From positions 5,842 through 69,841 of the forward strand of contig JAWKQJ010000008.1 of the NCBI GenBank assembly GCA_041390205.1: DNA of 64,000 bases. The letters run 5' to 3'. This document shows, piece after piece, positions 32,840 through 54,743 of the stretch. A program made the position numbers and the translations under genes. Every line of letters starts with the position of its first letter. Positions within the stretch are counted from its first letter, which is position 1. The DNA comes from Gemmatimonadales bacterium. Lineage in GTDB: Bacteria > Gemmatimonadota > Gemmatimonadetes > Gemmatimonadales > GWC2-71-9. The notes below the pieces were generated by a model. It had not been told where the DNA came from and searched no databases. It saw only the letters and a list, made by a program, of their open reading frames with translations.

Positions 32840-33423
32840 GACTCGAGCTCGCGCAGGGCGCGCTCGACCTGGGCCATCTCCTGGTCGGTCACGCGGGCCG
32901 CGTCGGAGCGCTCGACCGGGCCGGCGGCGGGCGCCGGTGCCGGCTCGGGGCGGTCGCGGCGCAGCAGAACCCAGGCGAGGATCGACCCCGCGACCAGGAC
33001 CAGCGAGCCGGGCAACAGGTAGCCCACGGCGCCGAAGCCCTTCGCCTTCGGCGCCATCAGGATGCTCTCTCCGTACTTGGCGACGAAGGCTTCGATCGCC
33101 TGATCGGGGGTGTTGCCGGCCTCGAGAAGCTGCACCAGCTCCCGATGGAGCTCGGGCGAGTAGGTGCAGGTGAAGTCGGTGGTGCGGCAGGTGAAGACGT
33201 CGAGCCCGCAGCCGCAGGTGCAGCGGAGCTTGTACTCGATCGCACGGACGGTCTCGTCGTTGTCCATGGCCCGGACTTCGGGCCGGGCTCCACCCGCCCA
33301 GCTCGGCGCCATCAACGGATCGGCCGGCCCCCGGGCCGAGTCCTGCTGGACCCGGAGTCCCGGCAGCAGCAGCCCCGCGGCGCCGAGTCGGCCCGCACCC
33401 CGCAAGAAATCGCGACGCTTCAA
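32836..33423 (-). CDS. ccmH: Cytochrome c-type biogenesis protein CcmH/NrfF family (CxCGC variant)
   Basis: 195 aa with KLRCTCGCGLDVFTC..C, FVAKYGESILMAPKAKGFG and a C-terminal TM helix. The N-terminus RRDFLRGAG looks like a twin-arginine signal. Confidence 0.7.
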   Translation of the reverse strand: MKRRDFLRGAGRLGAAGLLLPGLRVQQDSARGPADPLMAPSWAGGARPEVRAMDNDETVRAIEYKLRCTCGCGLDVFTCRTTDFTCTYSPELHRELVQLLEAGNTPDQAIEAFVAKYGESILMAPKAKGFGAVGYLLPGSLVLVAGSILAWVLLRRDRPEPAPAPAAGPVERSDAARVTDQEMAQVERALRELES

Positions 33424-33481
33424 CCCGCTATCCTCCCGGGCGCGCCGGCGAGCGCCGGCGGCCCCTGCCTAACGTCGTGCC

Positions 33482-35515
<2,034 letters not shown>

Positions 35516-35568
35516 TTCAGAGATCCGACGATGACGCTACGGGGTGCGGGCCCCGGCGCGGGGCCCGC

Positions 35569-35997
35569 TCAGGTCGACTTCTTGTGCAGATCCTCCAGCT
35601 CGGCCTCGTACCGCGAGCCGCACTTCGCCAACACCTCGGTCGCGTGGAAGACCCCGTCGCGACCCAGCTTGCCGGACATGATCACTTCGATGTCGTTGGC
35701 GTCGGTGAAGGTGTCGGGCACGATCCCGGTGTACTCGACCGGAAAGCTCGCGGTGCTGTCGCTCACCCGGAAGGCGATCCGCTGGCTGCTCGGGTCGCGC
35801 TGGATGGTGCCGGGCACCACCTTGGCGCCGACCTTGAGGCCCACGTCGTGGAACGAGGGATCCTGGCTGGTCCTCGCGACCAGCTCGCTCGGGCTCAGGA
35901 AGTAGACACCGGTCTGCTTCACGCCTTGGTACATCAGTCCGACGATGGCGAGGACGATGACGGTGGAGCCGAGCGCGAATTTACTGGAAGCCTTCAT
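35569..35997 (-). CDS. ccmE: Cytochrome c maturation heme chaperone CcmE, Cys-variant (CxxxY)
   Basis: 142 aa: N-terminal TM anchor, OB-fold body, and C-terminal VLAKCGSRYEA where canonical CcmE has VLAKHDENY. Confidence 0.85.
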   Translation of the reverse strand: MKASSKFALGSTVIVLAIVGLMYQGVKQTGVYFLSPSELVARTSQDPSFHDVGLKVGAKVVPGTIQRDPSSQRIAFRVSDSTASFPVEYTGIVPDTFTDANDIEVIMSGKLGRDGVFHATEVLAKCGSRYEAELEDLHKKST

Positions 35998-38389: not shown

Positions 38390-39489
38390 ATGCACGTCGT
38401 CCACGTCTCCGCGTCCGGGTTTCGGAACCTCGCCCCGCTCGACCTCGAGCTGCCCGAGGCGGGGGCGGTGTTCCTGGGCCCGAACGGCCACGGCAAGACC
38501 AACCTGCTCGAGCTGCTCTACTACCCGGTCCTCTTCCGGAGCGTCCGGGGCGCCCGGGACCTCGGCCTGATCGGCTTCGAGACCCCCGCCTTTCACCTGG
38601 CCCTGACCCTGATCGACGCCGAGCGGGCCACCCGACGGATCGAGTGCGGCTTCGCCCGCGAGGGGAGACGCAAGCGGGTCGCGGTCGACGGCGCCGAGCA
38701 GCCCCGGCTGCTCGACGCGCTCGGCGGCTGGCTCGCCGTGGCGTTCCTGCCGACCGACGTGTCCCTGGTGATGGGTGGCGCCGCCGAGCGCCGCCACTTC
38801 CTCGATCGGGTGCTGGCGCTCACCAGCCGCGAGTACCTGATCGCGCTCCGGCGCTATCGATCGGCCCTCGAGCAGCGCAACGCGGCGCTCCGCCAGCAGC
38901 AGTCCGACGCCGCCCGGGCCTTCGAGGGGCCGCTCGCGGAATGCGGCGCGGTCGTGTTGCGGCACCGGCTGGATTGGGTGAGCGCGCTCCAGGGTCGGCT
39001 GGCCGAGCTCTGCGCGGAGCTGGGCGAGCCGCTGCCGGTGGAGCTGGAGTACCGCGGCCGCGGCGAGGAGCTCCAGGACGCCGAGGCGTGGGCCGCGCAG
39101 CTCCACGATGCAAGGGCCCGGGACCTGGCGCGCGGCGTCACCACGGTCGGCCCCCACCGGGACGACCTCCTGCTCCGCCTCGGCCGCGCGGCGCTCCGCG
39201 ACGTCGGCTCGACCGGGCAGCACCGGACCGTGGCGATCGCGCTCAAGCTGGCCGAGCGGGAGACCTTCGCCCGGGCCACCTCGAGCGAGCCGGCGCTGCT
39301 GCTCGACGACGTCTTCGCCGAGCTCGATCGGAGCCGCCAGGACGCCCTCGCGGCGATCCTCTCGGCGGGACCGGCGCGACAGGTGTTCGTCACCGCGCCG
39401 CGCAAGGACGAGCTGCCGCCGTCGCTCGACCTGCCGGTCTTCGGAATCCGCGAGGGCCGGGTGAGCGGCTCGACCGGCGGGCGGTCGGG

Positions 39490-39493
<4 letters not shown>
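38390..39493 (+). CDS. recF: DNA replication/repair protein RecF
   Basis: 367 aa with FRNLAPLDLELPEAGAVFLGPNGHGKTNLLE (Walker A) and LLLDDVFAELD. Confidence 0.9.
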
Positions 39494-42049
<2,556 letters not shown>

Positions 42050-42051
<2 letters not shown>

Positions 42052-42069
42052 GCCGCCGCCCGGCGGCTC
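42050..42069. terminator. Short GC hairpin spanning both convergent stop codons
   Basis: GAGCCGCCG-CC-CGGCGGCTC, between the gyrB stop and the MATE stop. Confidence 0.3.
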
Positions 42070-43441
42070 AGCGGAAGGCGCGGGTCACGGAGCGATACTG
42101 CGCGAGCAGGGTTCCGGCCCGCGTCACGTAGTATCCCACGAAGGCGAGCCACATCCCGTGCGCCCCGAGCAGCGGGGTGAGCGCACGATCCAACCCCACG
42201 TAGAGCACCACCGCCCAGAGCGAGGCGTTCCGCATCGCCCCGGCCGCCATCGCGCCGACGAAGATCCCGTCGAGCTGCCAGGCGGCGGCCCCGATGAACG
42301 GGATCGCGGCCGCGTAGGGGAGGAAGCGAAGCGCCGCGGACCGCGCTTCGGGGTCGGCGATCCAGCGTTCCAGCACCCACGGGCCGGCGATCAGGGTCGA
42401 CACCAGGAAGACCGCGCCACTCACGATGGCGAGCTCCGTCGTGACCCGCACCGCGCGCGAGAACGCCTCGCGCGAGCGGGCACCGATGGCCTGCCCGACC
42501 GCGGTCTCCGCCGTATAGGCGTAGGCGTCGAGCACGAAGGCCCACACCGTGACGATCTGGAGCAGCACGTGGTTGCCGGCGAGCGTCGCCGCGCCCTGCT
42601 TGGCTCCCGCGTTCGCGAACCAGGCGAAGCCGGCCAGCAGGGCCCAGCTCCGGATCATCATGTCGGTGTTCATGCTCATCAGCCGGCGGAGCGCCCGTCG
42701 CGACCAGAGCGTGGCCCGCTCGAACACCCCCGGCAGCCAGCCGCCACGCGCCGTGAGGCTCTGCATGGCGTAGCCGAGGCCGACCACCGCGGCCAGGGTG
42801 TCGGCGATCGCCGTGGCCCAGGCCACGCCCGCAACACCCCAGCCCAGGCCGAGCACGAACCAGAGGTCCAGGAGGATGTTGGTCAGGCTGAACACGATCT
42901 GCACCACCAACACCGGGCCGGTCCGCCCGAGGCCGATCAGCCACCCGGTGAGCGCGAAGGTGGCGTAGGCCCCCGGCGCGCCCCAGGAGCGACCGCGGAA
43001 GTAGACGCCGCCGATCTCCTCGACCACCGGCCCGCCCTGCAGCACCTGAAAGCCCAGCGCCGCGAAGGGACTCCGGAGAAGGAGACTGAGCGCGCCGAGC
43101 AGCAGCGAGAGGCCCACGGCGCGCACCAGGATGCGCTGCAGCTCCAGCCGATCACCGGCGCCTTCCGCCTGGGCCGCGAGGCCCGTGGAGCTCATCCGGA
43201 GGAAGTAGAAGCTCCAGTAGAGCACGTTGAAGAGGGTGCCGCCGAGCGCCACGCCGCCGAGGTCGGTCTTGTCGCCGACCGCGCCGATCACGGCCGTGTC
43301 GACCACGCTCGCGAGCGGCACGGCCGCGTTCGCGAGAAACATCGGCCACGCGAGCTGAAAAGCGCGCGCGCGAGTCAGGGTCGGGTGGGAGGCGGGGCTG
43401 GACAAGCCGGAAAGAATGGACGCGGCCGCCGCGACCGACAA
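42068..43441 (-). CDS. MATE family efflux transporter
   Basis: 457 aa with 12 TM segments. The N-terminal pattern is LAWPMFLANAAVPLASVVDTAVIG. Confidence 0.85.
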   Translation of the reverse strand: MSVAAAASILSGLSSPASHPTLTRARAFQLAWPMFLANAAVPLASVVDTAVIGAVGDKTDLGGVALGGTLFNVLYWSFYFLRMSSTGLAAQAEGAGDRLELQRILVRAVGLSLLLGALSLLLRSPFAALGFQVLQGGPVVEEIGGVYFRGRSWGAPGAYATFALTGWLIGLGRTGPVLVVQIVFSLTNILLDLWFVLGLGWGVAGVAWATAIADTLAAVVGLGYAMQSLTARGGWLPGVFERATLWSRRALRRLMSMNTDMMIRSWALLAGFAWFANAGAKQGAATLAGNHVLLQIVTVWAFVLDAYAYTAETAVGQAIGARSREAFSRAVRVTTELAIVSGAVFLVSTLIAGPWVLERWIADPEARSAALRFLPYAAAIPFIGAAAWQLDGIFVGAMAAGAMRNASLWAVVLYVGLDRALTPLLGAHGMWLAFVGYYVTRAGTLLAQYRSVTRAFR

Positions 43442-43474: not shown

Positions 43475-44761
43475 TTACGGGCCGGAGCGAGCCAGCAGCG
43501 CCTGGATCGGGACCCGGCGACTGACGATCACCTGCTCCCCGACCTTGGGCAGCGCCATCACCGCGCCGGGCTGGCTCATGTCCGGCCGGGCGCGAGCCGC
43601 GTCATGGTGGGCCTGCTCGCTCTGCTGACTCCAGGCCACGACGAGCGAGTCGCCCGCCCGCCCGAGCACCGGAAACTCGGCCGCACCGTCCCCGCTCAGG
43701 GCGAGGGTCGGCCCGAACTCGGCCCCGCTCGTCGCCGCCCTGAGCAGGATCCGCGGCGACGGGCCATGGCCGTCGTCCCAGGCGACGGCCACGGCGCCGC
43801 CCAACGGCTGGACCCGCACGTGAGCCGGCGCCGAGCTGGCCGCCACCGCCACCGGACGGACCGTGAAGGTCCGGCCCTGATCCTCTGACCGGCCGTAGTA
43901 GACGCCCGCCGAGCCTTCCTTGCCCGTCCACCATCCGAGATGCACCACGCCCTCACGGTCGACCATGAGGGAGGGGCCGGCGTGCGGACACGCGGAGATC
44001 ACCCAGTCGTCCGCTCGAGGGCGGACCGGATCCAGCCAGGTCGCACCGCCGTCCGGGGACCGCATCACCACCACGTCGCGGGCCCCGTTCTCGAAGACCT
44101 TGCGCCAGGATACGTAGAGCGAGCCGTCCGGTCCGAGCGCGAGCCCGGTCCGGCAACAAGGGCAGGCCTCGCCGGTGTCGATCGGCCTGGCGGGCGCCCA
44201 GGTCCGGCCCCCGTCGTCGGAGCGCCGAAGCCAGACCGACGATCGCCCGGCGGTCGAGCTGAGCCAGGCCGCGTACACCCGCCCCGAGTCGCCGGCCAGG
44301 ACGGCGTGGAAGTTGTGCGAGCCGAAGCGCTCCCCTTCGTTCACGCTGATCGGCTCGCTCCAGCTCTGCCCGCGGTCTTCGGAGCGCACCAGACGCAGCG
44401 CGCTCCGCGGAAATCGCTGCCCCGGCACCTCTTTGCCGACGGTGTAGAGCAGATAGAGGGAGCCGTCCGGAGCGGTCGCGAGCTGCGGGGGCGCTTCGCC
44501 GTGGGGGGCGACGGCGCCGAGCGGGTCGGCCACCTCCGCCCGACTCGGCTCGCCACCGGTCGGGGTGACCTCGATCGCGAGCCCGCCGTCGGCGGTCACG
44601 TAGGAGAGCACCCGGTCGCCGCTCGGATCGATCGCCAGCATCGGCGCGGCGCCCTGGCCGAGCGGCGTGGAGACCTGCTCGACCGCCGAGAGCGGAACCG
44701 GGTCGCGCTCTCCGCAGCCTAACGTTGCGAGGAGCGGGATCCAGATCCAGGCCGCTCTCAT
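43475..44761 (-). CDS. BNR/Asp-box repeat (sialidase-fold) lipoprotein
   Basis: The internal ATG at 44761 (ATGA overlap with the copC stop) gives 428 aa. Lipobox LATLGC. Asp-boxes SEDRGQSW, SDDGGRTW, SPDGGATW, SEDQGRTF. Cys pairs ACPCC and ACPH. Confidence 0.7.
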   Translation of the reverse strand: MRAAWIWIPLLATLGCGERDPVPLSAVEQVSTPLGQGAAPMLAIDPSGDRVLSYVTADGGLAIEVTPTGGEPSRAEVADPLGAVAPHGEAPPQLATAPDGSLYLLYTVGKEVPGQRFPRSALRLVRSEDRGQSWSEPISVNEGERFGSHNFHAVLAGDSGRVYAAWLSSTAGRSSVWLRRSDDGGRTWAPARPIDTGEACPCCRTGLALGPDGSLYVSWRKVFENGARDVVVMRSPDGGATWLDPVRPRADDWVISACPHAGPSLMVDREGVVHLGWWTGKEGSAGVYYGRSEDQGRTFTVRPVAVAASSAPAHVRVQPLGGAVAVAWDDGHGPSPRILLRAATSGAEFGPTLALSGDGAAEFPVLGRAGDSLVVAWSQQSEQAHHDAARARPDMSQPGAVMALPKVGEQVIVSRRVPIQALLARSGP

Positions 44762-45132
44762 TCGCCAGCCACCTTGAACGCGAAGCGGCCTCGAACGGCA
44801 TGGCCGTCGTCGCTCGCCGTCCGCCAGACCACGGTATAGGTGCCCGGGCCGAGTGCGGCGCCGAGCGTCGCCCGGACCGCGAGGGAGTCCGCCCCCGCGG
44901 TCGGCTTCCCGACGGCGAGCTTGGCCCCGTCGGCCGCCAGCAGGTTGATGCTCGAGAACGCGACCGACGGCTTTTCCTTGAACCAGAGCTCGATGGTCCG
45001 GGGCGAGCTGGCCAGCGTCTCGTCCTCGGCCGGCGCGCTCCTGGTCAGGTGGTTGTGCATGGCGGCCACGGTCCCGGCGCCGAGCCCGACGAGCAGGGCC
45101 AGCACCGCGATCGGCGAGAAGATCCGCTTCAT
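44758..45132 (-). CDS. copC: CopC domain-containing periplasmic protein
   Basis: 124 aa: signal peptide, then HNHLTRSAPAEDETL, YTVVWRTASDDGHAVRGRFAFKV. Confidence 0.8.
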   Translation of the reverse strand: MKRIFSPIAVLALLVGLGAGTVAAMHNHLTRSAPAEDETLASSPRTIELWFKEKPSVAFSSINLLAADGAKLAVGKPTAGADSLAVRATLGAALGPGTYTVVWRTASDDGHAVRGRFAFKVAGE

Positions 45133-45190
45133 CGTTGCATCCTCCTATGGTGATCGGGGGCGCCGGGCGCGAGCCCGGCGCCACACCGGG

Positions 45191-47530
45191 TCAGTCCAGT
45201 CTCGCGGCGCCCAGGAAGTACTGGGCGCCGAGATAGAGCGTGCGCGGCTGGCCCGGCCGATAGCGGCGGCCCTGGAACGCGTTGTAGCTGGTGCTCTCGG
45301 CATACCGCGCGTTGCCGGCGTTCTGAAGGCGGCCGACCAGCTGCAGCCCGGTGACGACCGGGACGGCGGCCGAGAGGTTGAACAGGTCGTAGCCGTCGTA
45401 GCGCTCGGTGTTGTCCGGGTTCATCCAGTAGTGGCCCATGTGGACCCACTCGGCGGACAGGTAGCCGGAGCGCAGCAGGGCCGGCGTCCAGGTGGCGCCG
45501 ATCCGGCCCATGTTGCTCGGGGCGAGCTCGATGGTCTGCCCGCTGTAGTCGACCGTCGTGCTGGGCCGCCACTCCCGGTACTCCTGATCGGTGTACGCCC
45601 AGCTGCCGTCCACCCGGAACGCGGTGGTCGGTCGGACGCTCAAGCCCAGCTCGACGCCGCGGTGACGGGTGGCGCCGGCGTTGGTCGCGGTGCGGAGCCC
45701 GTTGGCGGGATCGAGAAAGGTGAGGATGTCGTCCGTGATGTCGAGCTGATAGAGCGTCACGTCGAAGCCGACCCGGCCGGCGACGTTGCCGCGGAGCCCC
45801 GCCTCGTAGTTGTCGGCCTTGACGGGCGCCAGGTCGACCGTGCTCACCGCCTGACCCTGCCGGAAGAGCTGGCTCTCCGACGGCGCGCGGAAGGCCGCGC
45901 GATAGGAGACGAAGGCGTTGAGGGAGGACGAGAGATCGAGTGTGGCGCCGAGCTTCGGCGTGAGCCGGCGATAGTCCACCGACGTCGAGCCGGGTACTCG
46001 GTGCGCGCCGGTCTGCACCGGGGCCAGCGCGGTCTCGTAGGAGAAGCCCACGTTGTCGAGCCGGAGACCGAAGTCGAGGTGCAGCCGATCGGCGACCGTC
46101 GCGTTGAGCTGCGCGTACGGCGACGCCTGCCAGAAGGTGACGTCGTAGTCGTACTGGACCTCGCCCGTGGTGTAGCTCACGTACCTGCCGGCATCCTGGG
46201 TCGGGACGATCTGCTGCTCGAGCCGGCTCCCGGGACTCACCTCCAGATCCAGGCCGACGCTCAGATTCGCGTTGAGCGCGGGAATCGTCCGGCGGAACCG
46301 GGTGAGCAAGCCGAGCGACGAGTTGCGGCTCTCCCAGACCTGGGGATCGAACGAGAGCTGCCACGAGGGCAGCAGGTCGAGCTCGTTGCGGCGTCCGTAG
46401 AGCGTGGCCGCGAAGAGGGAGAGGCCCTCCTGGCGCTCCAGCGTGGAGGACGCCCGGAGCGCGAAGACCCGCCGAAACGCGACCGGGGTCGAGTTCTTCG
46501 TCGGATCGGTGTCGAAGTCGGCTTGGGTGACCTCGCCGCCGCCGTCGCCGGGTTGGTCGATGTGGGAGAGCGCGACGACCGTCTTGAGCGAGGTCGTCGG
46601 CCCGACGGCATGGTCCCAGCGAACCGTCCCGCTCTGGCGGGAGTAGGGCGCCTGGTCCCGATAGCTGTCCGAGTGGGTCAGATTGAGGTCGGCGCGGAGG
46701 CCGTTCCGCCCCCAGGTGTTGCTCGCGCTGCCGAGGGCGCGGAGATAGCCGAAGCGACCGCCCTCCAGGAACAGCTCGCCGCCGGCCCCGGCGGTCGGAG
46801 CCCGGGTGAAGCTGCTCACCACGCCGCCGATCGCGTCGCTCCCGTAGAGCGCGGAGCCCGGCCCCTTGATCACCTCGATCCGGGCGGCCTGGGGAATGTT
46901 GATCTCGTAGAGCGCGTTGTGATTGAAGAAGCCGGTGGAACGGATCGGAACGCCGTCCTCGAGGTAGGCGTAGACCGGCTTGGTGGTGATCGGTTGGCGG
47001 ATCGCCGTGAAGTGGCCCTCGCCACTCAGGTTGGCGACCCAGGCGCCGGCCACCTGCTGCACGACGTCCGCAGGATGGTGCGGACGGGCGCGGCGCAGGG
47101 CCTCCTCGTCGACCACCCCGATGCTGGCGGCGGTCTCGCTCCTGGTCTGCGCCTCACGGGAGACGCTCACGACGAGGTCGTCGAGCGAGACCGGCTCGGC
47201 CTCGAGCACGACGTCGCGAGTCACCTCGGCGCCCGCCGTGACCCGCACGGTCACCCTGGTGGCTCCCCACCCGATTGCCCGGATCGCGATCTCCTGGGTG
47301 CCTGCCGGAACGCCGGTGAGCCGATAGCGACCCTCCGCGTCGCTCTCGACGCTCCGTCCCGTCGCCAACGCCCGGATCGACGCGCCGACCACGGCACGGC
47401 CTGAACCGGCCTCCACGACCCGACCGACGACCGTGCCGGTCGGGGCCTGCGCGCCGAGCGCACCGCTCGACAGCCAATACAGCGACATCACACCCGCCAC
47501 GACCCGGCGAGCGATCGAAGTCCAACGCAT
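45191..47530 (-). CDS. TonB-dependent receptor with N-terminal CarboxypepD_reg domain
   Basis: 779 aa. G(T/R)V.D..G.P..GA-type regulatory domain, plug (IEVIKGPGSALYGSDAIGGVV), and a long beta-barrel. Confidence 0.9.
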   Translation of the reverse strand: MRWTSIARRVVAGVMSLYWLSSGALGAQAPTGTVVGRVVEAGSGRAVVGASIRALATGRSVESDAEGRYRLTGVPAGTQEIAIRAIGWGATRVTVRVTAGAEVTRDVVLEAEPVSLDDLVVSVSREAQTRSETAASIGVVDEEALRRARPHHPADVVQQVAGAWVANLSGEGHFTAIRQPITTKPVYAYLEDGVPIRSTGFFNHNALYEINIPQAARIEVIKGPGSALYGSDAIGGVVSSFTRAPTAGAGGELFLEGGRFGYLRALGSASNTWGRNGLRADLNLTHSDSYRDQAPYSRQSGTVRWDHAVGPTTSLKTVVALSHIDQPGDGGGEVTQADFDTDPTKNSTPVAFRRVFALRASSTLERQEGLSLFAATLYGRRNELDLLPSWQLSFDPQVWESRNSSLGLLTRFRRTIPALNANLSVGLDLEVSPGSRLEQQIVPTQDAGRYVSYTTGEVQYDYDVTFWQASPYAQLNATVADRLHLDFGLRLDNVGFSYETALAPVQTGAHRVPGSTSVDYRRLTPKLGATLDLSSSLNAFVSYRAAFRAPSESQLFRQGQAVSTVDLAPVKADNYEAGLRGNVAGRVGFDVTLYQLDITDDILTFLDPANGLRTATNAGATRHRGVELGLSVRPTTAFRVDGSWAYTDQEYREWRPSTTVDYSGQTIELAPSNMGRIGATWTPALLRSGYLSAEWVHMGHYWMNPDNTERYDGYDLFNLSAAVPVVTGLQLVGRLQNAGNARYAESTSYNAFQGRRYRPGQPRTLYLGAQYFLGAARLD

Positions 47531-47620
47531 TCACCACACTCCCCCGGAGCCGACTCGCCCCGGTGAAAGAGATTGCAGCCGGTCGAGGAGACCGGCCAAG
47601 GCTGGGATTGGGAGAAGTGG

Positions 47621-47995
47621 TTAGGCGGTGGGTGGCGCTGTGGCCGGGGGCTGGCGGCGGTCCGGCCGGGCGGCCAACGGCGTGGCCGCCGCGAGTCGCG
47701 GCCCGGCCCGCTCGAACACGAGCGGCTCGAGGACCGGGGTGCCGGCGGCCTTCGGAACGGCCGCGGAGGACACCTGACAGGCGCCGAGGCACTGGCAGGT
47801 CCCGGCGTGGGTCCCACCCTGCTCCGGCGCCGTCTCGTGGTGGTGCCCCGCTCCCGACCCGGCCTCCGCCCCCGCCATCCACGGCATGTCGACCGGGCAT
47901 GGGTGCAGGACCGGCAACGCCACCCCGCCCAGGCCCGGCGAAGCACCGAGCAGGAGCAGGCTGAAGAGCCGGGAGTGGCGGAGCGAGCGCAGCAT
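47621..47995 (-). CDS. Secreted Cys/His-rich small protein (putative metal-binding, DUF2946-like guess)
   Basis: 124 aa with a signal-like N-terminus, HPCPVDMPWM, GHHHE and GTCQCLGAC. The family guess is tentative. Confidence 0.4.
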   Translation of the reverse strand: MLRSLRHSRLFSLLLLGASPGLGGVALPVLHPCPVDMPWMAGAEAGSGAGHHHETAPEQGGTHAGTCQCLGACQVSSAAVPKAAGTPVLEPLVFERAGPRLAAATPLAARPDRRQPPATAPPTA

Positions 47996-48034: not shown

Positions 48035-49417
48035 TCATTGCCGAGCGGCGAACTCCGCCAGGAAGGCCAACAACCGGTCGACGTCCTCCTCGTTGCTGGC
48101 GACGCCAAGCGAGGCCCGCAGCGCCCCGGCCGCGTATCCGGGGCCGAGGCAACGGCCGAACCGCTCCACCGAGAACTCCCCCGGCCCGAGACGATCGAGG
48201 CAGTCGCCGGTGCGATCCGCCGGAAAGCCGAAGGCGATCTCGGCGGCGCCGGGATTGCAGAAGCAGCCGCCGCGCAGGTGGATCCTACGGTCTCCGGCTT
48301 CGCGCTCGATCGCCTCGAACTCGATCACCTCGCCATTCGGCCGAAGCAGATTGAACGCGACGGTGCCGCCCCGGTCCACGACCGAGTCCGGGCCGTAGAG
48401 GGACACCATCGGAGAGCCGTCGGCATGCCGGAGGGCACGGAGACCGTCCAGCAGGCGGGCGGTCAGGTATCGCACCCAGCGTCCGATCGCGTCGACACCG
48501 ACCTGGTCGAGGAACTCGAGCCCGGGCACGACGCCGCCGATCCCGAGAAAATTCGGCGTCCCGTCCTCGAACGCCTCCGCGCCACGGCGGAGCTGATGGC
48601 GACCGAGCTGGACCGAGACGAAATCCACGGTCCCGCCCGCGAACCACGGCCGCTCCAGCTCGGCCAGCGCCTCGTGACGGGCGATCAACGCGCCGACGCC
48701 GGTGGGAAAGCCGAACATCTTGTAGAACGACAGGCAGACGAAGTCCGCCTTCACCTTGCTCAGGTCGAGCCGACTGGTCGGGGCGAAGGCGGCGGCGTCG
48801 AGCAGCACTCGGTACCCGGCGCTCCTGGCGCGATCCACCAGCGCGAGCGGGTGCCGCACCCCCGAGAAGTTCGACTGTGCCGGGAAGGCGAACAGCGAGG
48901 GGCCGGCTCCGGGCTCCGGAAGCCGCGTGGCGGGATCGAGACGGAGCTCCGCGTCGAGCGGCAAGTGCGCGATCGTCGCCCCGACCCGCTTGGCGTACTC
49001 CACCAACCCGTTGACCGAGTTGTGATTGTCCTCGAGCAGCGCGTAGACGGAGTCGGCGCGAAAGGGAAAGGACTCGCCCACCAGCTTGATGGCGGCCGAG
49101 GCGTTGGCGGTGAAGATGACGGTGTAGGACGCGGGGTCGGCGGAGAAGAACTCCAGCACCCGCGCCCGGGTGCGCTCGATCAGCTCGGTCGCGTAGACCG
49201 ACGCGGGGTTGTGCGAGTGCGGGTTCCCGATCAACGCGTGCTCGATCAGCTCGCGATAACGCTCCATCTGGCAGTGCGCATGAAGACCGCTGCCGGTGTA
49301 GTCGAGGTAGGCGTGCCCCTCCTCCTCGAGGCGCGAGAACTCGGTCTCGCGCAGCGCGGCGAAGCTGGCTCGATCCGCCTCGATCCGCTCGGCCTCCGAC
49401 CCGCTCAGAATCCGCAT
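48035..49417 (-). CDS. Class V aminotransferase-fold, MOCOS/ABA3-type NifS-like enzyme (no MOSC domain)
   Basis: The internal ATG at 49417 gives 460 aa. SFYKMFGFPTGVGALI (PLP-Lys region) and RGGCFCNPGA (catalytic Cys loop) match my memory of the N-terminal domains of eukaryotic molybdenum cofactor sulfurases. Confidence 0.75.
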   Translation of the reverse strand: MRILSGSEAERIEADRASFAALRETEFSRLEEEGHAYLDYTGSGLHAHCQMERYRELIEHALIGNPHSHNPASVYATELIERTRARVLEFFSADPASYTVIFTANASAAIKLVGESFPFRADSVYALLEDNHNSVNGLVEYAKRVGATIAHLPLDAELRLDPATRLPEPGAGPSLFAFPAQSNFSGVRHPLALVDRARSAGYRVLLDAAAFAPTSRLDLSKVKADFVCLSFYKMFGFPTGVGALIARHEALAELERPWFAGGTVDFVSVQLGRHQLRRGAEAFEDGTPNFLGIGGVVPGLEFLDQVGVDAIGRWVRYLTARLLDGLRALRHADGSPMVSLYGPDSVVDRGGTVAFNLLRPNGEVIEFEAIEREAGDRRIHLRGGCFCNPGAAEIAFGFPADRTGDCLDRLGPGEFSVERFGRCLGPGYAAGALRASLGVASNEEDVDRLLAFLAEFAARQ

Positions 49418-50028
49418 CCGCGCCTCCGTGCCTTCTCGACCATCGCCCGCTCGGCGAGCCGGCCGCCGGTCGGATCGTCGAGCCAGGCTGGCGTGCCGTC
49501 CGGCGGCCGGGGGCCGCCCCGGCGGGGCAACCCTCCGAAGTATCGGCTCAGCTCGCCGATCTCGGGCCACGCCGCGAGCTCGGCCTCGGTCGCCTCGTCG
49601 GGCAGCACGGGGTGCTCGATCGCCTCCAGCCAATCCGAGACCCCGCGCTCCAAATAGTAGACCCGGTCGAGGCCCTTCGCACGGAGCAACAGCCAGGCCT
49701 GAGCCGGGATCGGCCCCGCGCCGCCGTAGAGCACGATGGTCCGCCCCGGGTCGAGCCGTCTCCGCTCGAGCTCGACCAGCTCCACCCGCTCGGCCGTCGG
49801 GATGTGGAAGGCGCCGAAGTCGTCCTCGGACTGGAGATCGAGCAGGGTGAGATCGGCCCGCCTGCTCTTGATCCAGCGCGCGAGCTCGACCACCGAGAGC
49901 CGCCCTTCGCCCCGACCGATTCCCTCGACGAGGGCTGCCGGTATCCCGGCCGGGCGCGGCTGGCCTGCCAGCGCCGCCAGGACGCCCAGCGTGAGCGCCG
50001 CGAGCGCGAGTCGGGCGTGCCGGCTCAC
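49405..50028 (-). CDS. Rhodanese-homology domain protein lacking the catalytic Cys; C-terminal ..RRRGCGF
   Basis: GTG at 50028 in a GTGA overlap. N-terminal hydrophobic anchor or signal. Rhodanese fold LLDLQSEDDFGAFHIPTA..TIVLYGGAGPIPAQ has Gly where Cys is expected. Overlaps the next gene by 13 nt. Confidence 0.6.
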   Translation of the reverse strand: MSRHARLALAALTLGVLAALAGQPRPAGIPAALVEGIGRGEGRLSVVELARWIKSRRADLTLLDLQSEDDFGAFHIPTAERVELVELERRRLDPGRTIVLYGGAGPIPAQAWLLLRAKGLDRVYYLERGVSDWLEAIEHPVLPDEATEAELAAWPEIGELSRYFGGLPRRGGPRPPDGTPAWLDDPTGGRLAERAMVEKARRRGCGF

Positions 50029-50585
50029 CGCGCCGCCCGGCGGCGTTCGATCGCCTCCGCCAACCGGAAGGCGCCGAGCGCCGCCACCACCACGGCGAGC
50101 ACCGCGAGCCCGGGAGACACCCCGGCGAGGTCGCCGAGCGTCACCGTGCCCAGCGGTGAGGAATCGTAGAAGGAGGCGACCCGCGCGAAGCCCTCGTTGA
50201 ACACGACGATGCCGGCGCCCATCCCGAGCATCAGCGCCACGCCGTCGAGCCGGCCGGTCGAGGCGGCGACGCACGAGGTCCCGGGGCAGAGCCCACCCAT
50301 CACGAAGCCCAGGCCGAACACCGCGCCGCCGATCAAGTGCGGCCAGAGATAGGTCTCCGGCACGAAAACCCGGCCGACGTCGACCAGGCCGAGCCGACCC
50401 AGCCAGAAGAGGCCGAGCATCGCGGTCAGGATCGCCGAGAACATCACCTTGAGCACCGCGAAGTCGGTGAGGTAGAACTGACCGGCGAGCTTCCGCGCGC
50501 TTCCCATCCCGCCCTGCTCGAGGAAGAAGCCGAAGCCGACCCCGATCACGAGGGCGATCGCGATCTCGGAGCCGGTCACGTCCAC
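50025..50585 (-). CDS. YeeE/YedE family sulfur-transport membrane protein (half-size, B)
   Basis: About 186 aa. GTG at 50585 or 50579 overlaps the upstream stop. GGLCPGTSC motif. Confidence 0.75.
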   Translation of the reverse strand: MDVTGSEIAIALVIGVGFGFFLEQGGMGSARKLAGQFYLTDFAVLKVMFSAILTAMLGLFWLGRLGLVDVGRVFVPETYLWPHLIGGAVFGLGFVMGGLCPGTSCVAASTGRLDGVALMLGMGAGIVVFNEGFARVASFYDSSPLGTVTLGDLAGVSPGLAVLAVVVAALGAFRLAEAIERRRAAR

Positions 50586-51109
50586 TCCCGGCGGAAGAGC
50601 GGCGCCGCGAGATACGCGGCACCGAACGCCCCGACGATGAAGAGCCAGCTCCCGACGCTCAGCACGGCACCGCCCGAGAGCGCCTGCCCCGAGGTGCACC
50701 CGCGCGCCAGCTTGGCCCCCACGCCCATGATCGCGCCGCCGCCGAACGCCAGCGCGAGCCGGGCCCGGTCGGTGACCCGCGGCCCCCGCTCGATGGTTCG
50801 CCGGAAGCGGCCCGCCAGCCAGGCGGAGAGCGCCCCGCCCGCGAACACCCCGATCATCTCCCAGACCAGCCACTCGTCGAAGAGCGAACGGGGTCCCTCG
50901 GGAGCGTACGCCGCGTAGGCCGGGATCGAGGCCGCGTGCTCGGGCGCAACCAGCGACGCACCCGACGCGACCACGGAGGCGAACGCGCCGGAGGCGCCGA
51001 GCCCGCGCCCGACGAAGACGAACGCGGCGAGCAGCACCAGGCCGAGCCCGATCCCCGCGAGATAGGGATCGAGGTAGGGTCGCTCCTGCCGCGGGGAGGG
51101 GCCGGTCAT
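50576..51109 (-). CDS. YeeE/YedE family sulfur-transport membrane protein (half-size, A)
   Basis: 177 aa. The ATG at 51109 is in an ATGA overlap. ARGCTSGQALSG motif. Confidence 0.75.
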   Translation of the reverse strand: MTGPSPRQERPYLDPYLAGIGLGLVLLAAFVFVGRGLGASGAFASVVASGASLVAPEHAASIPAYAAYAPEGPRSLFDEWLVWEMIGVFAGGALSAWLAGRFRRTIERGPRVTDRARLALAFGGGAIMGVGAKLARGCTSGQALSGGAVLSVGSWLFIVGAFGAAYLAAPLFRREWT

Positions 51110-52020
51110 CGCCGCGTCGCCTCGGTGGTGAGCGGCAGGTCGCGCTTGGCCCAGTCCTGGAAGGAGCCGTCGTAGAGCCGCACCTCGTGGCCCAACACCC
51201 GGGCGGCCGTCAGGATCGAGTTGGCGTAGATCCCGATGTGGCAGTAGGCCACGACCACGTCGCCCGGCCGCACCCCGGCCGCGTCGAAGAGCGCGCGGAG
51301 CTCGGCGGTCGACTTGAAGCGTCCGTCTTCCTGCCAGACCTCCTGAACGCCGAGCGAGAGGGCGCCGGGCACGTGACCCGGCTTGCCGGGATCGTCCCGG
51401 CTGAACTGGCTGTTCCGCACCCCGTCGTAGAACGCCTGCCCTCGCGCGTCGATCACGGCCCACCCCTTGGCGTCGACGTGACCTCGCACGAACTCCGCGT
51501 CGACGACGAACCCGGTCCGAGGCCGGATCGTCAAGCTGCCCCGTGCCGTCGGCGACGCCTCGGCCGTGACCGGCCGGCCCGCGGCGGTCCAGGCCTCGAG
51601 GCCACCGTCGAGCACCACGGCCCGATCGCCCAGGCCGGCATAGTAGAGGGTCGAGAAGACCCGGAGCGCGCTGGTGCCCCAGTCCTTGGCGGCCACCACC
51701 ACCGGGCGGGACCGGTCCGACAAGCCGAGATCCTCGAGCTGCCGCTCGAGGGTCGAGTCGGCCGGGAACTCGACCGCGAGCGCGTCGGGACCCGACGGCG
51801 CGGTGATCGAGCCGAGCTGCACCTGACGCGCACCCGCGATGTGCGCCGTCTGGTAGGCGTCCTTCGGTCCGACGTGGAGGATCACCAGGTCGGGGTCGTT
51901 CAAGTGGGCCGCGAGCCATTCGACCGTGACGAAGAGGCGGTCACGGTGATCCTGCGCCGCCGCCGGCGCAGGGCCAATGGCGATCAGCACGGCAGTGAGA
52001 ACGGAGAGCTGCATGCGCAT
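51106..52020 (-). CDS. Secreted double-rhodanese sulfurtransferase, paralog 3
   Basis: 304 aa: signal peptide MRMQLSVLTAVLIAIGPAPAAAQ and two rhodanese domains. Active-site loop AYCHIGIYA. Confidence 0.8.
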   Translation of the reverse strand: MRMQLSVLTAVLIAIGPAPAAAQDHRDRLFVTVEWLAAHLNDPDLVILHVGPKDAYQTAHIAGARQVQLGSITAPSGPDALAVEFPADSTLERQLEDLGLSDRSRPVVVAAKDWGTSALRVFSTLYYAGLGDRAVVLDGGLEAWTAAGRPVTAEASPTARGSLTIRPRTGFVVDAEFVRGHVDAKGWAVIDARGQAFYDGVRNSQFSRDDPGKPGHVPGALSLGVQEVWQEDGRFKSTAELRALFDAAGVRPGDVVVAYCHIGIYANSILTAARVLGHEVRLYDGSFQDWAKRDLPLTTEATRR

Positions 52021-52052
52021 GAGCAAAGCCTCGGGTGATTCGTTCGACGGGA

Positions 52053-52937
52053 TCAGGGCCGCTCGACCGGGAGATCTGCCCGGGAGCTCCAGTCGGCCAT
52101 CGAGCCGACGTAGAGGCGCGCGCGCCGGCCGAGCACGCGGGCCACGAAGTAGAGGTGACTGGCCCGCATTCCGACCGTACAGTAGGCCACCACCTCGCGA
52201 TCGGGGGTCGCGCCGTTCGCGACGAGAAGGCGCTCGAGCTCCGGGCGAGGCTTGAGCCGGGCGCCCTCCGGAGGGTTGTCGGCCTCCGGACCGGTCGCGG
52301 GCACCTCGCCGGTCAGGGTCGCGACCCAGTGGAGATGCCGGGCGCCGGGAATGTGGCCCGCCCGCTCGACGCCGACGTCGCTCTGGCCCCGATACTCGGC
52401 GGCGGTCCGCGCGTCGAGCAACGCGGGCGCGGTCGAGCCGCGCCTGGCCGCGATCCACTCGGCGTCGACCACCAGGTCCGCCCGCACCCGCGGCTCGAAG
52501 CGCGCCCGCTTCGGCGCGGCGGCGGGTGTCGTGCTCACCTTGCCGCCGGCGGCCCGCCAGGCCGCGAGGCCGCCATCGAGGACGGCGGTGCGCGGGGCGT
52601 GCCCGAGGTAGTCGAGGGCAACGAAGACGAGCGCGGTCGCCATCGGGTCGCCGACCAGCACCACGCGGGTCGTGTTCGAGACGCCGAGCGCTTCGAAGGC
52701 GCCGACCAGGTCGGCGACGGGCAAGAGCCGGTCGCCCGCCTGATGGCCGTGAAAGCGCATCACGTCGGCGAAGCGCGCGCCGGGAACGTGCCCGGCGTCG
52801 TACTCGGCCTCGGACATCGAGGTGTGCAGCACCACCAGGTCCGGACGGTCGAGCTCGCGGCGGAGGGCCTCAGCGGAGACCACGAACGAGTCGCTCGGCG
52901 CCACCAGCAGCGTCGCCAGGCCAAACGCCGCGATCAC
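52053..52937 (-). CDS. Double-rhodanese sulfurtransferase, paralog 2
   Basis: GTG at 52937 in a GTGA overlap gives 294 aa. Short hydrophobic N-terminus. Active-site loop AYCTVGMRA. Confidence 0.75.
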   Translation of the reverse strand: MIAAFGLATLLVAPSDSFVVSAEALRRELDRPDLVVLHTSMSEAEYDAGHVPGARFADVMRFHGHQAGDRLLPVADLVGAFEALGVSNTTRVVLVGDPMATALVFVALDYLGHAPRTAVLDGGLAAWRAAGGKVSTTPAAAPKRARFEPRVRADLVVDAEWIAARRGSTAPALLDARTAAEYRGQSDVGVERAGHIPGARHLHWVATLTGEVPATGPEADNPPEGARLKPRPELERLLVANGATPDREVVAYCTVGMRASHLYFVARVLGRRARLYVGSMADWSSRADLPVERP

Positions 52938-53818
52938 CGGTCCGACCCCTCGGGGCCCTCGACCGGCAGGTCGGTCCGCCGCGCCCAGTCCTGGAACGAG
53001 CCGTCGTAGAGCGACGCATCGAGCCCGACGAGACGCGCCGCGAACCAGACCAGCGTCGCCTGCTGCCCGATGTGACAGTAGGCGATGACGCGCTTGCCGT
53101 TGCCGGCCCCGGCCGCCCGGAAGAGCCGCTCCAGCTCCGGCTTCGACTTGAGGAGTCCGTCCTGGCCCACGAGGGAGACGAACGGCAGGCTCTTGGCGTG
53201 CGGAATGTGACCGTTGCGCCCTTGCCGGGTCTCGCCGCCCTCGTAGAAGCGCTGTGCGCGCGCGTCGATCAGCGCCCCCGCGGGATCGTCGATCGCGGCT
53301 CGGACCTCCTTGGCGCCCACGACCACGCTCGGATCCACCCGCGGGGTGAAGTGACCCCGCTTCGGATTCGGCACCTCGGTGGTCACCTCGCGGCCGGCGG
53401 CCTTCCAGGCCTCGAGGCCCCCGTCGAGAAACGCCACCCGCCCGGCCAGGCCGGCCCACTCGAGCACCAGCGCCGTCCGAGAGGTCGGGGTGAAATACTC
53501 CTGCGCGAGCACCAGCACGATCTTCGAGTCGTCGGAGACGCCTTTGGCCTCGAGCACCGAGTCGAGCACTCCGATCTCGGGCAGCTCGAGGGTGAGGCCG
53601 CCTTCGGACGGCGGCGCGGACAGCTCGCGCCACGGATGGACGAACTGCGAGCCCGGGATGTGTCCGGCGTCGTACGCCGGCTTCGACCGGTCGTCACCGA
53701 TCTGAAAGAGCACCAGCTTCGGGTCGGCGAGATGCGCCGCCAGCCAGTCCACCGTCACCACCCGGGGAATTTCCGGCGGCTGGGCCAGCAGGGGCAGCGC
53801 GAGCAGCAGGGGCCACAT
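52934..53818 (-). CDS. Secreted double-rhodanese sulfurtransferase, paralog 1
   Basis: 294 aa with signal MWPLLLALPLLAQP. Active-site loop AYCHIGQQA. Confidence 0.85.
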   Translation of the reverse strand: MWPLLLALPLLAQPPEIPRVVTVDWLAAHLADPKLVLFQIGDDRSKPAYDAGHIPGSQFVHPWRELSAPPSEGGLTLELPEIGVLDSVLEAKGVSDDSKIVLVLAQEYFTPTSRTALVLEWAGLAGRVAFLDGGLEAWKAAGREVTTEVPNPKRGHFTPRVDPSVVVGAKEVRAAIDDPAGALIDARAQRFYEGGETRQGRNGHIPHAKSLPFVSLVGQDGLLKSKPELERLFRAAGAGNGKRVIAYCHIGQQATLVWFAARLVGLDASLYDGSFQDWARRTDLPVEGPEGSDR

Positions 53819-53939: not shown

Positions 53940-54743
53940 TCAAAGCGCCTGGCCGAGCTGCGCCTCGAGCGCGGCGCGCCGGCTCCGGCTCAGCCGAACC
54001 CGCGCCCCGGTTCGCAGCAGCAGCACCAGATCGCCGTGCGGCGTCGGCTGGACTTCCTGGACCCGCTCGAGATTGACCACGGCCGAGCGATGGGCCCGGA
54101 AGAAGGCGCCCGGATCGAGTCGCCGCTCCAGGTTGGAGAGCGACTCGCGGATCACGTGGGTCCGGGTGCCGACGTGGACTTTGACGCAGTAATCGGCGGC
54201 CTCGATCCAATCGATCTCCTCGACCGGGACGAACAGCCTGGTGCCCGTCTTCCGGACCACCAGCCGGGTGAGCCAGCTCTCCGCCGGCTCCGGATCGAGC
54301 GCCGCGGCCTCGGTCCCGCCAATCGAGGAGAGCAGGCCCACCAGCCGCTTGGCGAGATCGTCGGCCGAGGCCACCCGCGCGGCGCGCTTGCCCCGATCGA
54401 GGGCGGTCGCGAAGCGGCGATCGTCGAACGGCTTGAGCAGGTAGTCGACGGCGTTCACCTCGAACGCCCTGAGGGCGTACTCGTCATAGGCGGTGACGAA
54501 GACCACGACGGGCATCCGCTCGACGCCGACGGCACGGATCACCGCGAAGCCGTCGACCTCGGGCATCTGCACGTCGAGCAGCACCAGGTCGGGCTCGAGC
54601 TCCCGAATGGCGCGGATCGCCTGGGCTCCGTCGCTGGCGTCACCCACCAGCTCGACCTCCGGATCGCGGGCGAGGAGGGCGATCAGACCCGACCTGGCGA
54701 GCGGCTCGTCGTCGACCACCAGGACCCGCACCGGCTCGCTCAT
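53940..54743 (-). CDS. LytR/AlgR family response regulator (REC + LytTR)
   Basis: 267 aa: VLVVDDEPLAR..DLVLLDVQMPE.. receiver domain, with a C-terminal LytTR domain (FFRAHRSAVVNL). Confidence 0.9.
   Translation of the reverse strand: MSEPVRVLVVDDEPLARSGLIALLARDPEVELVGDASDGAQAIRAIRELEPDLVLLDVQMPEVDGFAVIRAVGVERMPVVVFVTAYDEYALRAFEVNAVDYLLKPFDDRRFATALDRGKRAARVASADDLAKRLVGLLSSIGGTEAAALDPEPAESWLTRLVVRKTGTRLFVPVEEIDWIEAADYCVKVHVGTRTHVIRESLSNLERRLDPGAFFRAHRSAVVNLERVQEVQPTPHGDLVLLLRTGARVRLSRSRRAALEAQLGQAL

Follow-up and report, generated by a model that had tools for sequence, protein, structure and literature searches.

The closest described counterparts of the element analyzed here are two small exported peptides. 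In Bordetella pertussis, CruR (Bp2923) is an exported DUF2946 peptide that heads a copper-repressed operon for a TonB-dependent transporter; it carries a CXXC motif that is separated by 45 residues from an RAPP motif, which is itself three residues from the end (PMC9426467). The ribosome is arrested on this peptide until the growing chain senses copper; arrest is then lifted, and Rho terminates transcription within the long stretch between the genes. A C>G patch inside cruR holds the rut (Rho utilization) site, and CruR is predicted to be unstructured (PMC9426467). In Rhodobacter capsulatus, CutF, by means of a CxxxC motif and a proline-rich C-terminus, opens a stem-loop in which the Shine-Dalgarno (SD) sequence of the following gene is masked (PMC9973294; bioRxiv 10.1101/2025.02.05.636593). 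Here we analyzed a 64 kb stretch of DNA (hereafter, the window; G+C ~71%) from a Gemmatimonadales bacterium (contig JAWKQJ010000008.1), in which four co-directional minus-strand genes comprise a small leader open reading frame (ORF) and the genes for a TonB-dependent receptor, a CopC protein and a BNR lipoprotein. We think it probable, if far from certain, that this locus is a Gemmatimonadales copper-acquisition operon gated after the start of transcription by a copper-sensing leader peptide of the CruR/CutF type. By analogy, the system would work like the CruR-BfrG operon, with a CutF-like stem.

The features described in the sequence-only reading of this locus, namely the four co-directional genes, the HPCP, GHHHE and CQCLGAC motifs, CopC, the lipoprotein gene coupled to it by ATGA, the four Asp-boxes and the ACPCC and ACPH motifs, were all found, and the gene limits stand as first noted. 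The copC TGA and the lipoprotein ATG overlap as ATGA. Judged from sequence conservation, the ORFs of the four-gene unit are not chance ORFs, because the leader and the lipoprotein have many homologues and the gene order recurs. The features of the locus, with the evidence on which each assignment is based, are as follows.

47621..47995, minus strand: leader ORF (124 aa), a putative divergent CruR/CutF (DUF2946)-like exported Cys/His peptide; homologue clusters, sub-threshold DUF2946 matches of relatives, AlphaFold2 (AF2) model
47894..47905, minus strand: HPCP motif (residues 31-34), right behind the N-terminal hydrophobic export segment; alignment of 35 members
47777..47797, minus strand: CQCLGAC (residues 67-73), a CxCxGxC putative metal-sensing motif that includes CxxxC, as CutF does; alignment
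47630..47650, minus strand: PPATAPP, C-terminal proline arrest-like motif; spacing, rare Pro codons, likeness to CruR
47581..47660, minus strand: C-rich/G-poor RNA patch, a rut-like 'C>G bubble'; scan for C-minus-G excess
47531..47620, minus strand: structured intergenic spacer, 90 nt; fold z-score, terminator-like match
45191..47530, minus strand: TonB-dependent receptor (779 aa), PqqU/YncD-like, with an N-terminal CarboxypepD_reg domain; Pfam CarboxypepD_reg, Plug and beta-barrel matches
44758..45132, minus strand: CopC-domain putative periplasmic copper-binding protein; PF04234, 82 bits
43475..44761, minus strand: BNR_2 lipoprotein (428 aa), a predicted six-bladed propeller; BNR_2 match, AF2 model
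44150..44164, minus strand: CPCCR motif just ahead of the inner strand of blade 4 (206-209); 100% conserved in 84 genomes, AF2 model
43976..43990, minus strand: CPHAG motif just ahead of the inner strand of blade 5 (264-267); C258 and H260 100% conserved in 84 genomes, AF2 model

The leader ORF belongs to a large family: its homologues formed 114 clusters at 90% identity, with 757 representatives at E ≤ 1e-3, so that conservation of the small ORF, named beforehand as a check, was borne out. The protein begins with MLRSLRHSR followed by a hydrophobic segment of ~21 residues, within which one Pro and one Gly are invariant across the family; this sequence and the helices modelled at residues 2-18 and 23-30 mark an export signal, of either the signal peptide or the N-in transmembrane type. 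No structure was predicted past residue 30 (mean predicted local distance difference test (pLDDT) score, 62.7). Behind the export segment, H31, P32 and C33 were invariant among 35 aligned members, and HPCPV was found in 94 of the 107 members having HPC. The GHHHE sequence (residues 50-54) falls in a His-rich linker of variable length across the family. C67 and C69 were likewise invariant and C73 near-invariant in the same alignment; CxCxxxC occurred in 95 of 110 members, the family consensus being CxC(I/L)GxC, and some members have CHCPGC, which contains CxxC.

The ~46-residue stretch from the Cys motif to TAPP is hypervariable in sequence. Its length was 45-48 residues in all 110 members examined (45 in the window, from C73 to TAPP). 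The family C-terminus reads (L)PPxTAPP, with a clade variant, LPF(A/S)(T/N)(A/G)PP, in Gemmatimonadaceae, and the tail after the motif is two residues long in 104 of 110 members, including that of the window. In 34 of 48 loci, the codon for the first Pro of the xPP motif was CCT or CCA, two codons that account for ~8% of the Pro codons of the neighbouring receptor genes and 13% of those elsewhere in the leader. In addition, across ~48 loci, the Ala codon before the arrest prolines was often GCT and the upstream LPP was often written CTC-CCT-CC. These codons create two CUCCUCC-like anti-SD strings in the last 12 leader codons, in genomes of ~70% G+C (e.g. L003:5460-5489 and L021:3831-3860).

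The window leader matched no family when searched against Pfam and NCBIfam. Full-length, collinear matches to DUF2946 (PF11162; gathering score, 23.7 bits) were nevertheless obtained for 15 of 35 family members and for 8 of 10 distant ones, all of them sub-threshold (11-23.2 bits). These matches support the view that the leader is a divergent, sub-threshold relative of the DUF2946 peptides CruR and CutF and not a Pfam member. The pointer in the sequence-only reading to DUF2946-type proteins that accompany such receptors was thus a good lead.

We further analyzed the RNA that surrounds the leader stop codon. The 80-nt segment at 47581-47660, which straddles the leader-spacer junction with 40 nt on either side, had a C-minus-G excess of 0.375, which was the highest of any 80-nt segment on the same strand over the 64 kb. 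Equivalent C>G patches in relatives ranked in the top 1% of the locus in 39 of 49 cases and in the top 5% in 48 of 49. The spacer between leader and receptor is 90 nt long in the window and ranged from 63 to 235 nt (median, ~112) in 52 loci. Per-sequence z-scores and duplex energies were used in place of a consensus structure. Compared with dinucleotide shuffles, the spacers gave a mean fold z-score of –1.72, and 22 of 50 fell below –2, whereas coding controls gave –0.22 and 2 of 50; the z-score of the window spacer was –2.19. This spacer contains a terminator-like match and two hairpins, one at 47578-47597 with a U-rich tail and another at 47544-47563.

In the predicted fold, the SD sequence of the receptor gene (GGGGGAG, 47539-47545) pairs with CUUCUCCC (47610-47617), a segment beginning 4 nt past the leader stop; the hairpin with the U-rich tail sits between these two elements. 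In minimum free energy folds of 45 loci, the SD region paired with the last five leader codons or with bases just past the stop in 29, and its partner was often a CCUCC made by the Pro-Pro codons. The SD/anti-SD duplex energy was –17.6 kcal/mol, compared with –12.9 kcal/mol in controls, and 22 of 50 loci lay under the 5th percentile of coding controls. The rut-like patch and the long structured spacer are therefore well supported, and support for the SD/anti-SD helix extends to many, but not all, of the loci.

When these features were compared with the described systems, the locus resembled CruR-BfrG-Bp2921 in placing an exported small peptide before a TonB-dependent receptor and in combining a Cys motif, 45 residues and an xAPP sequence near the stop. 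The likeness to CruR extends to the C>G rut-like patch at the 3' end of the leader, the long GC-rich spacer and the prediction of an unstructured peptide. However, the window motif is CxCxGxC together with HPC and a His run, whereas CruR has CXXC; the arrest sequence is TAPP here, and NGPP or TGPP in sister clades, in place of RAPP; and the window leader falls below the Pfam cut-off and is probably not the first gene of its transcript. The third gene also differs, being a propeller lipoprotein here and a PepSY_TM protein in the CruR operon. Similarly, the leader shares with CutF-CutO-CutG Sec export, CxxxC, a proline-rich C-terminus and a predicted SD-masking stem-loop, although CutF governs a multicopper oxidase for detoxification that is switched on by copper, whereas the genes that would be governed here encode an importer and its partner. 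Gemmatimonadota do not appear in the taxon list given in the available part of the CruR paper (PMC9426467), and the main text of the CutF survey does not contain the terms 'BNR', 'sialidase' or 'Gemmatimonad' (PMC9973294). No paper that connects BNR propellers with either copper or DUF2946 leaders came up in our literature search.

Taken together, the fixed spacing, the lack of a predicted fold, the xPP motif near the stop in rare codons, the C>G patch and the long folded spacer make it most likely that the small ORF is a copper-sensing regulatory leader peptide of the CruR/CutF type, rather than a metal carrier. The earlier proposal of a secreted metal-binding accessory protein was accordingly given up, because a regulatory leader explains the motif spacing, the rare codons, the patch and the spacer better.

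We then compared the gene order among relatives by HMM (hidden Markov model) and phmmer searches of six-frame ORFs in 85 related loci. A scan of one genome per species yielded 123 loci, of which 80 were retrieved, all from Gemmatimonadota; the absence of the lipoprotein family outside this phylum is judged from family-specific peptide patterns alone. The order leader ORF-receptor-lipoprotein was observed in nearly all of the 85 loci where the contig extends far enough, and the receptor gene abuts or overlaps the BNR gene in most relatives. Genomes of the Gemmatimonas aurantiaca type are among the carriers of the triad (L036 and L045). By this comparison of gene order, the conserved unit is the leader together with the receptor and the BNR lipoprotein, and CopC is an occasional recruit. 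CopC was present in the window and in six related loci, at three different positions around the triad: before the leader ORF in L027, L031, L034 and L049, between receptor and lipoprotein in the window, and behind the lipoprotein in L021; in addition, L037 has a CopC-CopD gene close to the triad. The association of the BNR lipoprotein with copC, which had been singled out as unfamiliar, is thus real in the form of the ATGA coupling; the comparison of loci indicates that it is peculiar to the window's lineage, the conserved pairing across the 85 loci being that of receptor and BNR lipoprotein.

The genes that recur around the triad point toward copper. MsrP-MsrQ genes stand directly upstream of the leader in 24 loci (msrQ overlaps the leader ORF in L001 and L005), a multicopper oxidase gene lies upstream in five, and in L087 the gene ahead of the leader is divergent. 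Among distant members of the family, one precedes an MbnP-MbnH-receptor operon (L086), another precedes a receptor-BNR-redoxin operon, and two distant leaders precede CarboxypepD_reg receptors with spacers of 130-170 nt. In Proteobacteria, cruR homologues are reported beside genes for a TonB-dependent transporter, CopC, MbnPH and AhpC_TSA (PMC9426467). On the strength of the CopC, multicopper oxidase, MsrPQ and MbnPH neighbours, copper is the most likely link of the unit, which we accordingly read by guilt by association as most likely an outer-membrane unit for copper. This gene context upholds the general idea of an outer-membrane metal uptake unit put forward in the sequence-only reading; what does not survive is the OprC/NosA type of the receptor (see below).

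The L086 operon (L086:7001-12817, on a contig of 8.4 Mb) encodes MbnP, MbnH (CCP_MauG), a receptor without CarboxypepD_reg and a 310-aa protein without a Pfam match, and its spacer is 270 nt long. In a contig from farmland soil, a gene for a DUF305 protein lies directly upstream of a leader-receptor pair (L090:676-1251).

In 32 loci of the Gemmatimonadaceae-type clade, the propeller gene is directly followed by a gene for a ResA/TlpA/DsbE-like CxxC thiol:disulfide oxidoreductase lipoprotein. This TlpA/ResA-like redoxin, found among L035-L085 and in L087, has the motif WATWCxxC, and its gene often overlaps the propeller gene (e.g. L070:9184-9699 and L087:11109-11681); the window has no such gene.

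The lipoprotein itself was identified by BNR_2 at 68.4 bits (cut-off, 31.4) and CopC by PF04234 at 82 bits (cut-off, 23.3), in agreement with the family assignments that had been proposed for HMM searches. Searches of Pfam and NCBIfam with the lipoprotein returned BNR-type families only, with no match to BtuG or XusB (DUF4374). In public sources, its 719 homologues go under 'sialidase family protein' or as hypothetical, and all of the named ones belong to Gemmatimonadota. The lipobox is TLGC (Cys16), whose Cys is conserved in 96% of 84 genomes, and the signal is of the Sec type without a twin-arginine motif, which argues for export of the protein unfolded and for acquisition of any metal outside the cytoplasm. 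For the same reason, an Fe-S cluster in the lipoprotein was considered unlikely. AF2 predicted a six-bladed propeller with a C-terminal extension (pLDDT, 92.9; predicted template modelling (TM) score, 0.91). Foldseek gave only distant sialidase-fold matches (TM score, 0.43-0.60; 10-18% identity), and the top 50 were all of this fold; sequence alignments to solved sialidases reach little beyond the regions of the four Asp-boxes (residues 127, 181, 235 and 292). No F/YRIP motif was found in the lipoprotein, in which an RFP sequence (116-118) lies just nine residues ahead of the first Asp-box. A PQQ (pyrroloquinoline quinone)-dependent six-bladed dehydrogenase, an identity prompted by the PqqU-like receptor, was rejected, as neither Pfam nor Foldseek gave a match.

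A set of Cys and His residues is near-invariant in this protein. Within the ACPCC (199-203) and ACPH (257-260) motifs, C200, C202, C203, C258 and H260 were conserved in 100% of the 84 genomes, and H87, H274 and H314 in 98-99%, H152 in 96% and H149 in 88%. With the exception of H274, which starts the second strand of blade 5 (273-279), the conserved Cys and His residues lie at or just before the innermost strands of blades in the AF2 model:

HGE 87-89: inner strand 93-96
HNFH 149-152: inner strand 149-156
CPCCR 200-204: inner strand 206-209
CPH 258-260: inner strand 264-267
H314: inner strand 315-319

Because the conserved Cys and His residues precede the inner strands of consecutive blades, we infer from these strand positions that they may cluster at the propeller hub as a candidate copper-binding site. 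The ResA/TlpA-type reductase gene that adjoins in 32 genomes suggests that the cysteines are probably functional thiols and that the protein probably faces the periplasm rather than the cell surface, and the translational coupling to CopC in the window also points to the periplasm.

Propeller hubs with copper centres are known from the CuZ site of NosZ and from thiocyanate dehydrogenase, and the thiol reduction that accompanies copper loading is known from TlpA with ScoI and CoxB. The model is similar to the former in that its candidate ligands would come from the inner strands of successive blades, and the sister loci to the latter in that the gene of a Cys-bearing putative copper protein has a neighbour that encodes a dedicated extracytoplasmic CxxC reductase. 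However, there is no sequence relationship to any of these proteins, the ligand set is a mixed Cys/His one and no catalytic function is implied. With respect to gene order, the closest parallels are BtuB-BtuG and XusA-XusB of Bacteroides, likewise from a phylum of the FCB group, in which the receptor gene is at once followed by the gene of a beta-propeller lipoprotein responsible for ligand capture (PMC6143338, PMC13142918). The BtuG and XusB propellers are seven-bladed, surface-exposed lids that bind B12 or siderophores (PMC6143338, PMC13142918), whereas the protein analyzed here is a predicted six-bladed BNR_2 propeller with a candidate Cys/His hub and shows no detectable homology to them.

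In contrast to the lipoprotein, the receptor does not carry conserved metal ligands. OprC binds copper through a Cys/Met/His/Met site; the window receptor contains no Cys, and across 47 receptor orthologues no Cys, His or Met column was conserved at ≥90%. Against TIGR01778 (OprC/NosA) it scored 27.6 bits, compared with a cut-off of 472.45, and no OprC structure was among the PDB sequence matches at E ≤ 0.001. The best NCBIfam match was a siderophore subfamily, with all NCBIfam matches far below their cut-offs, and the closest solved relatives were PqqU (a PQQ transporter; E = 5e-26) and YncD. The OprC/NosA type considered in the sequence-only reading fails by the refuting condition which that reading itself had named (clustering with siderophore or B12 receptors) and was rejected on the HMM score and the absence of Cys; the likeness to OprC/NosA is limited to an outer-membrane TonB-dependent barrel in a copper context, with no family-level match. 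The receptor was also not accepted as an orthologue of PqqU, BtuB or siderophore receptors, since it is far below the family cut-offs and the similarity is only general. In the absence of conserved metal ligands, metal specificity is unlikely to lie in the receptor itself.

The receptor forms two clades that serve the same triad, one being 41-64% and the other 23-27% identical to that of the window, and the lipoprotein is 44-65% identical to that of the window alongside both. The second clade was found in L003, L005, L018, L021, L023, L024, L027, L028, L031, L034, L049 and L080, where the lipoprotein is nevertheless ~50% identical. In all five retrieved loci with CopC beside the triad (L021, L027, L031, L034 and L049), the receptor is of the second clade; that of the window belongs to the first.

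The CopC protein of the window resembles CopC, CopCD and YcnJ in its domain, in a His-x-His N-terminal region (HNH at 26-28, within AAMHNHL) and in a D-x-H motif (DDGH at 108-111). Unlike CopCD and YcnJ, it has no CopD partner in the window, and its score against the NCBIfam equivalog copper_CopC, 75.1 bits, is below the cut-off of 95. In the CopC proteins of Gemmatimonadales (window, L021, L027, L031, L034 and L049), the likely signal-peptidase site is separated from the conserved His by one or two residues (M, F, MR, FR, SR or YR). The canonical copper ligand, a His at the very N-terminus, may therefore not apply in these sequences.

On the basis of these comparisons, we propose the following scheme. 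The leader would be translated and exported, and the ribosome would pause at TAPP as the Cys motif, ~45 residues back, emerges from the exit tunnel; copper bound to the nascent leader would alter the duration of the pause. A paused ribosome would cover the rut-like patch and keep the anti-SD segment from pairing with the receptor SD, so that its presence or absence would decide whether receptor, CopC and lipoprotein are synthesized. On the model of CruR-BfrG, pausing and receptor expression would be expected at low copper, and release, followed by Rho termination and/or masking of the SD, at high copper. Shut-off by copper, as with CruR, would be logical for an importer, which a receptor of this kind is. 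The receptor would take copper, as such or in a small complex, through the outer membrane and hand it to the Cys/His propeller in the periplasm, with specificity and capture provided by the lipoprotein as its coupled partner. CopC, as a Cu(II) binder, could serve as an extra periplasmic relay in the window's lineage, and the TlpA/ResA-like reductase could keep the lipoprotein thiols reduced in sister lineages.

We examined this copper-acquisition scheme against four other explanations. The small Cys/His protein might be a mature metallochaperone, periplasmic or membrane-anchored, that trades metal with the receptor and has no regulatory role; it has an export signal, three conserved Cys residues and a His-rich stretch, and CutF was itself first conjectured to be a chaperone. 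A chaperone, however, would hardly be hypervariable outside short motifs while keeping its spacer length fixed, and neither the absence of an AF2 fold nor the invariant xPP two residues from the stop, in rare codons, nor the rut-like patch and long structured spacer that follow would be expected of it; moreover, the characterized relatives are degraded after export. We therefore regard this possibility as unlikely. The module might also serve copper stress or detoxification with the sign of CutF, in which case copper would prolong stalling and turn the genes on, the propeller would sequester copper or process it by redox chemistry, and the receptor would have some other role. MsrPQ, the multicopper oxidase and the thiol reductase are neighbours typical of responses to copper and oxidative stress, and the leader has CxxxC and an SD-masking stem as CutF does. 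TonB-dependent receptors are importers, however; the sole characterized leader ahead of such a receptor, in CruR-BfrG, represses the receptor in copper, and the tight coupling of receptor and lipoprotein argues for one shared transport step, which leaves this explanation with a small but real chance.

The copper assignment can be questioned in a different way, as the substrate might be another thiophilic metal (Zn, Ni, Co, Cd or Ag) or else a metal-organic complex, for instance with a chalkophore or an opine-type metallophore. Some CutF-like clusters precede Ni/Co genes (PMC9973294). The receptor, which itself lacks metal ligands, is similar to organic cofactor and siderophore transporters, and the conserved arginines of the propeller could bind carboxylates. 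Yet the Ni/Co-linked leaders are His-only, whereas the window leader is Cys-rich; the recurrent accessory genes (CopC, the multicopper oxidase, MbnPH and the TlpA-like redoxin) are all related to copper or thiols; and no metallophore biosynthesis genes are adjacent, so that a substrate other than copper appears improbable. Least consistent with the data is a glycan-utilization unit, in which a SusC-like receptor would act with a sialidase-family glycosidase and the leader ORF and CopC would be unrelated neighbours. BNR_2 with four Asp-boxes, the 'sialidase family protein' annotation, the sialidases among the best structural matches and a CarboxypepD_reg N-terminal domain such as that of SusC-type receptors all speak for it. 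The receptor, however, scored only 70 bits against the SusC/RagA model (cut-off, 368) and no SusD gene accompanies it; the structural matches reach TM scores of just 0.43-0.60 at 10-18% identity; the invariant residues are Cys and His, which are absent from sialidase active sites; and the leader co-occurs with the receptor-lipoprotein pair in almost every locus. We consider this explanation very improbable.

Several observations weigh against a leader-gated copper-acquisition operon. The window leader gave no DUF2946 match even at E ≤ 10, and, unlike the operon heads published for cruR, it starts 40 nt after an aminotransferase gene (in relatives the leader may overlap msrQ). CopC accompanies only ~8% of the loci, and the nearest relatives of the receptor transport organic cofactors. 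The four Cys residues of the lipoprotein could be structural disulfides, and its conserved R123, R204, R220 and R228 could indicate an anionic organic ligand. At the RNA level, the C-richness of the patch is partly forced by Pro, Ala and Thr codons; the SD/anti-SD duplex of the window is no better than controls (percentile, 0.36) because the SD region is so G-rich; and RNAalifold found no conserved structure in 12 spacers, as these are too divergent to align. Finally, copper turns expression down through CruR and up through CutF, so that the sign of regulation here could be either.

A more specific version of the proposed operon can be formulated, which we offer as a tentative idea that may well prove wrong. 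In this version, the lipoprotein would represent a new class of extracytoplasmic copper protein, with a multi-thiolate/imidazole site at the sialidase-fold propeller hub, and would be the obligate capture partner of a ligand-less receptor; the leader would represent a Gemmatimonadota branch of CruR/CutF in which the arrest codons CCU-CCN double as an anti-SD sequence, thereby combining Rho-type and SD-masking control. The class of mechanism is known, and what would be new are the leader branch, the accessory protein and the phylum in which the mechanism occurs.

If the copper-acquisition operon is as proposed, leader-peptide copper sensing, described between 2022 and 2025 in Proteobacteria, would extend to another phylum and to a branch missed by Pfam. 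Gemmatimonadota are abundant soil bacteria, many of which use such copper enzymes as clade II N2O reductase and haem-copper oxidases, and the locus would be a concrete and widely conserved candidate copper route in this phylum, present in at least 123 species-level genomes. The natural variation among leaders (TAPP, NGPP and TGPP; spacing of 45-48 residues; rare Pro codons) could be used to test nascent-chain metal binding against arrest. Moreover, the proteins behind hundreds of 'sialidase family protein' labels would more likely be metal-binding partners of receptors.

The surroundings of the operon were also inspected in the window. The leader start lies 40 nt past the stop of an Aminotran_5 gene. 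No sigma-70-like promoter was found ahead of the leader, a result that is uninformative for Gemmatimonadota. A scan of the whole window against Rfam at gathering thresholds gave no match, and a tRNA search of the window found none. Directly upstream of the leader and in the same direction, a sulfur-handling cluster (48035-53818, minus strand) contains, besides the gene of a class-V aminotransferase (SufS-like, below the cut-off), one single-rhodanese gene, a YeeE/YedE sulfur-transport pair in split form and three double-rhodanese genes in tandem. These sulfur-transfer genes were rejected as part of the unit, since relatives have MsrPQ or unrelated genes at this position. A LytTR response regulator gene follows past the cluster (53940-54743).

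On the other side, 33 nt separate the lipoprotein stop from the start of a MATE/DinF-like efflux gene (42068-43441, minus strand), which may belong to the same transcript; this gene is not kept beside the triad in relatives, which have a methyltransferase gene or pyrR there instead. The recF and gyrB genes on the plus strand (38390-42051) adjoin the operon. The recF-gyrB pair is usually found near the replication origin; the GC-skew profile of the window gave no clear switch. Further along the window, at 32836-35997, are ccmE, ccmF and ccmH for cytochrome c maturation.

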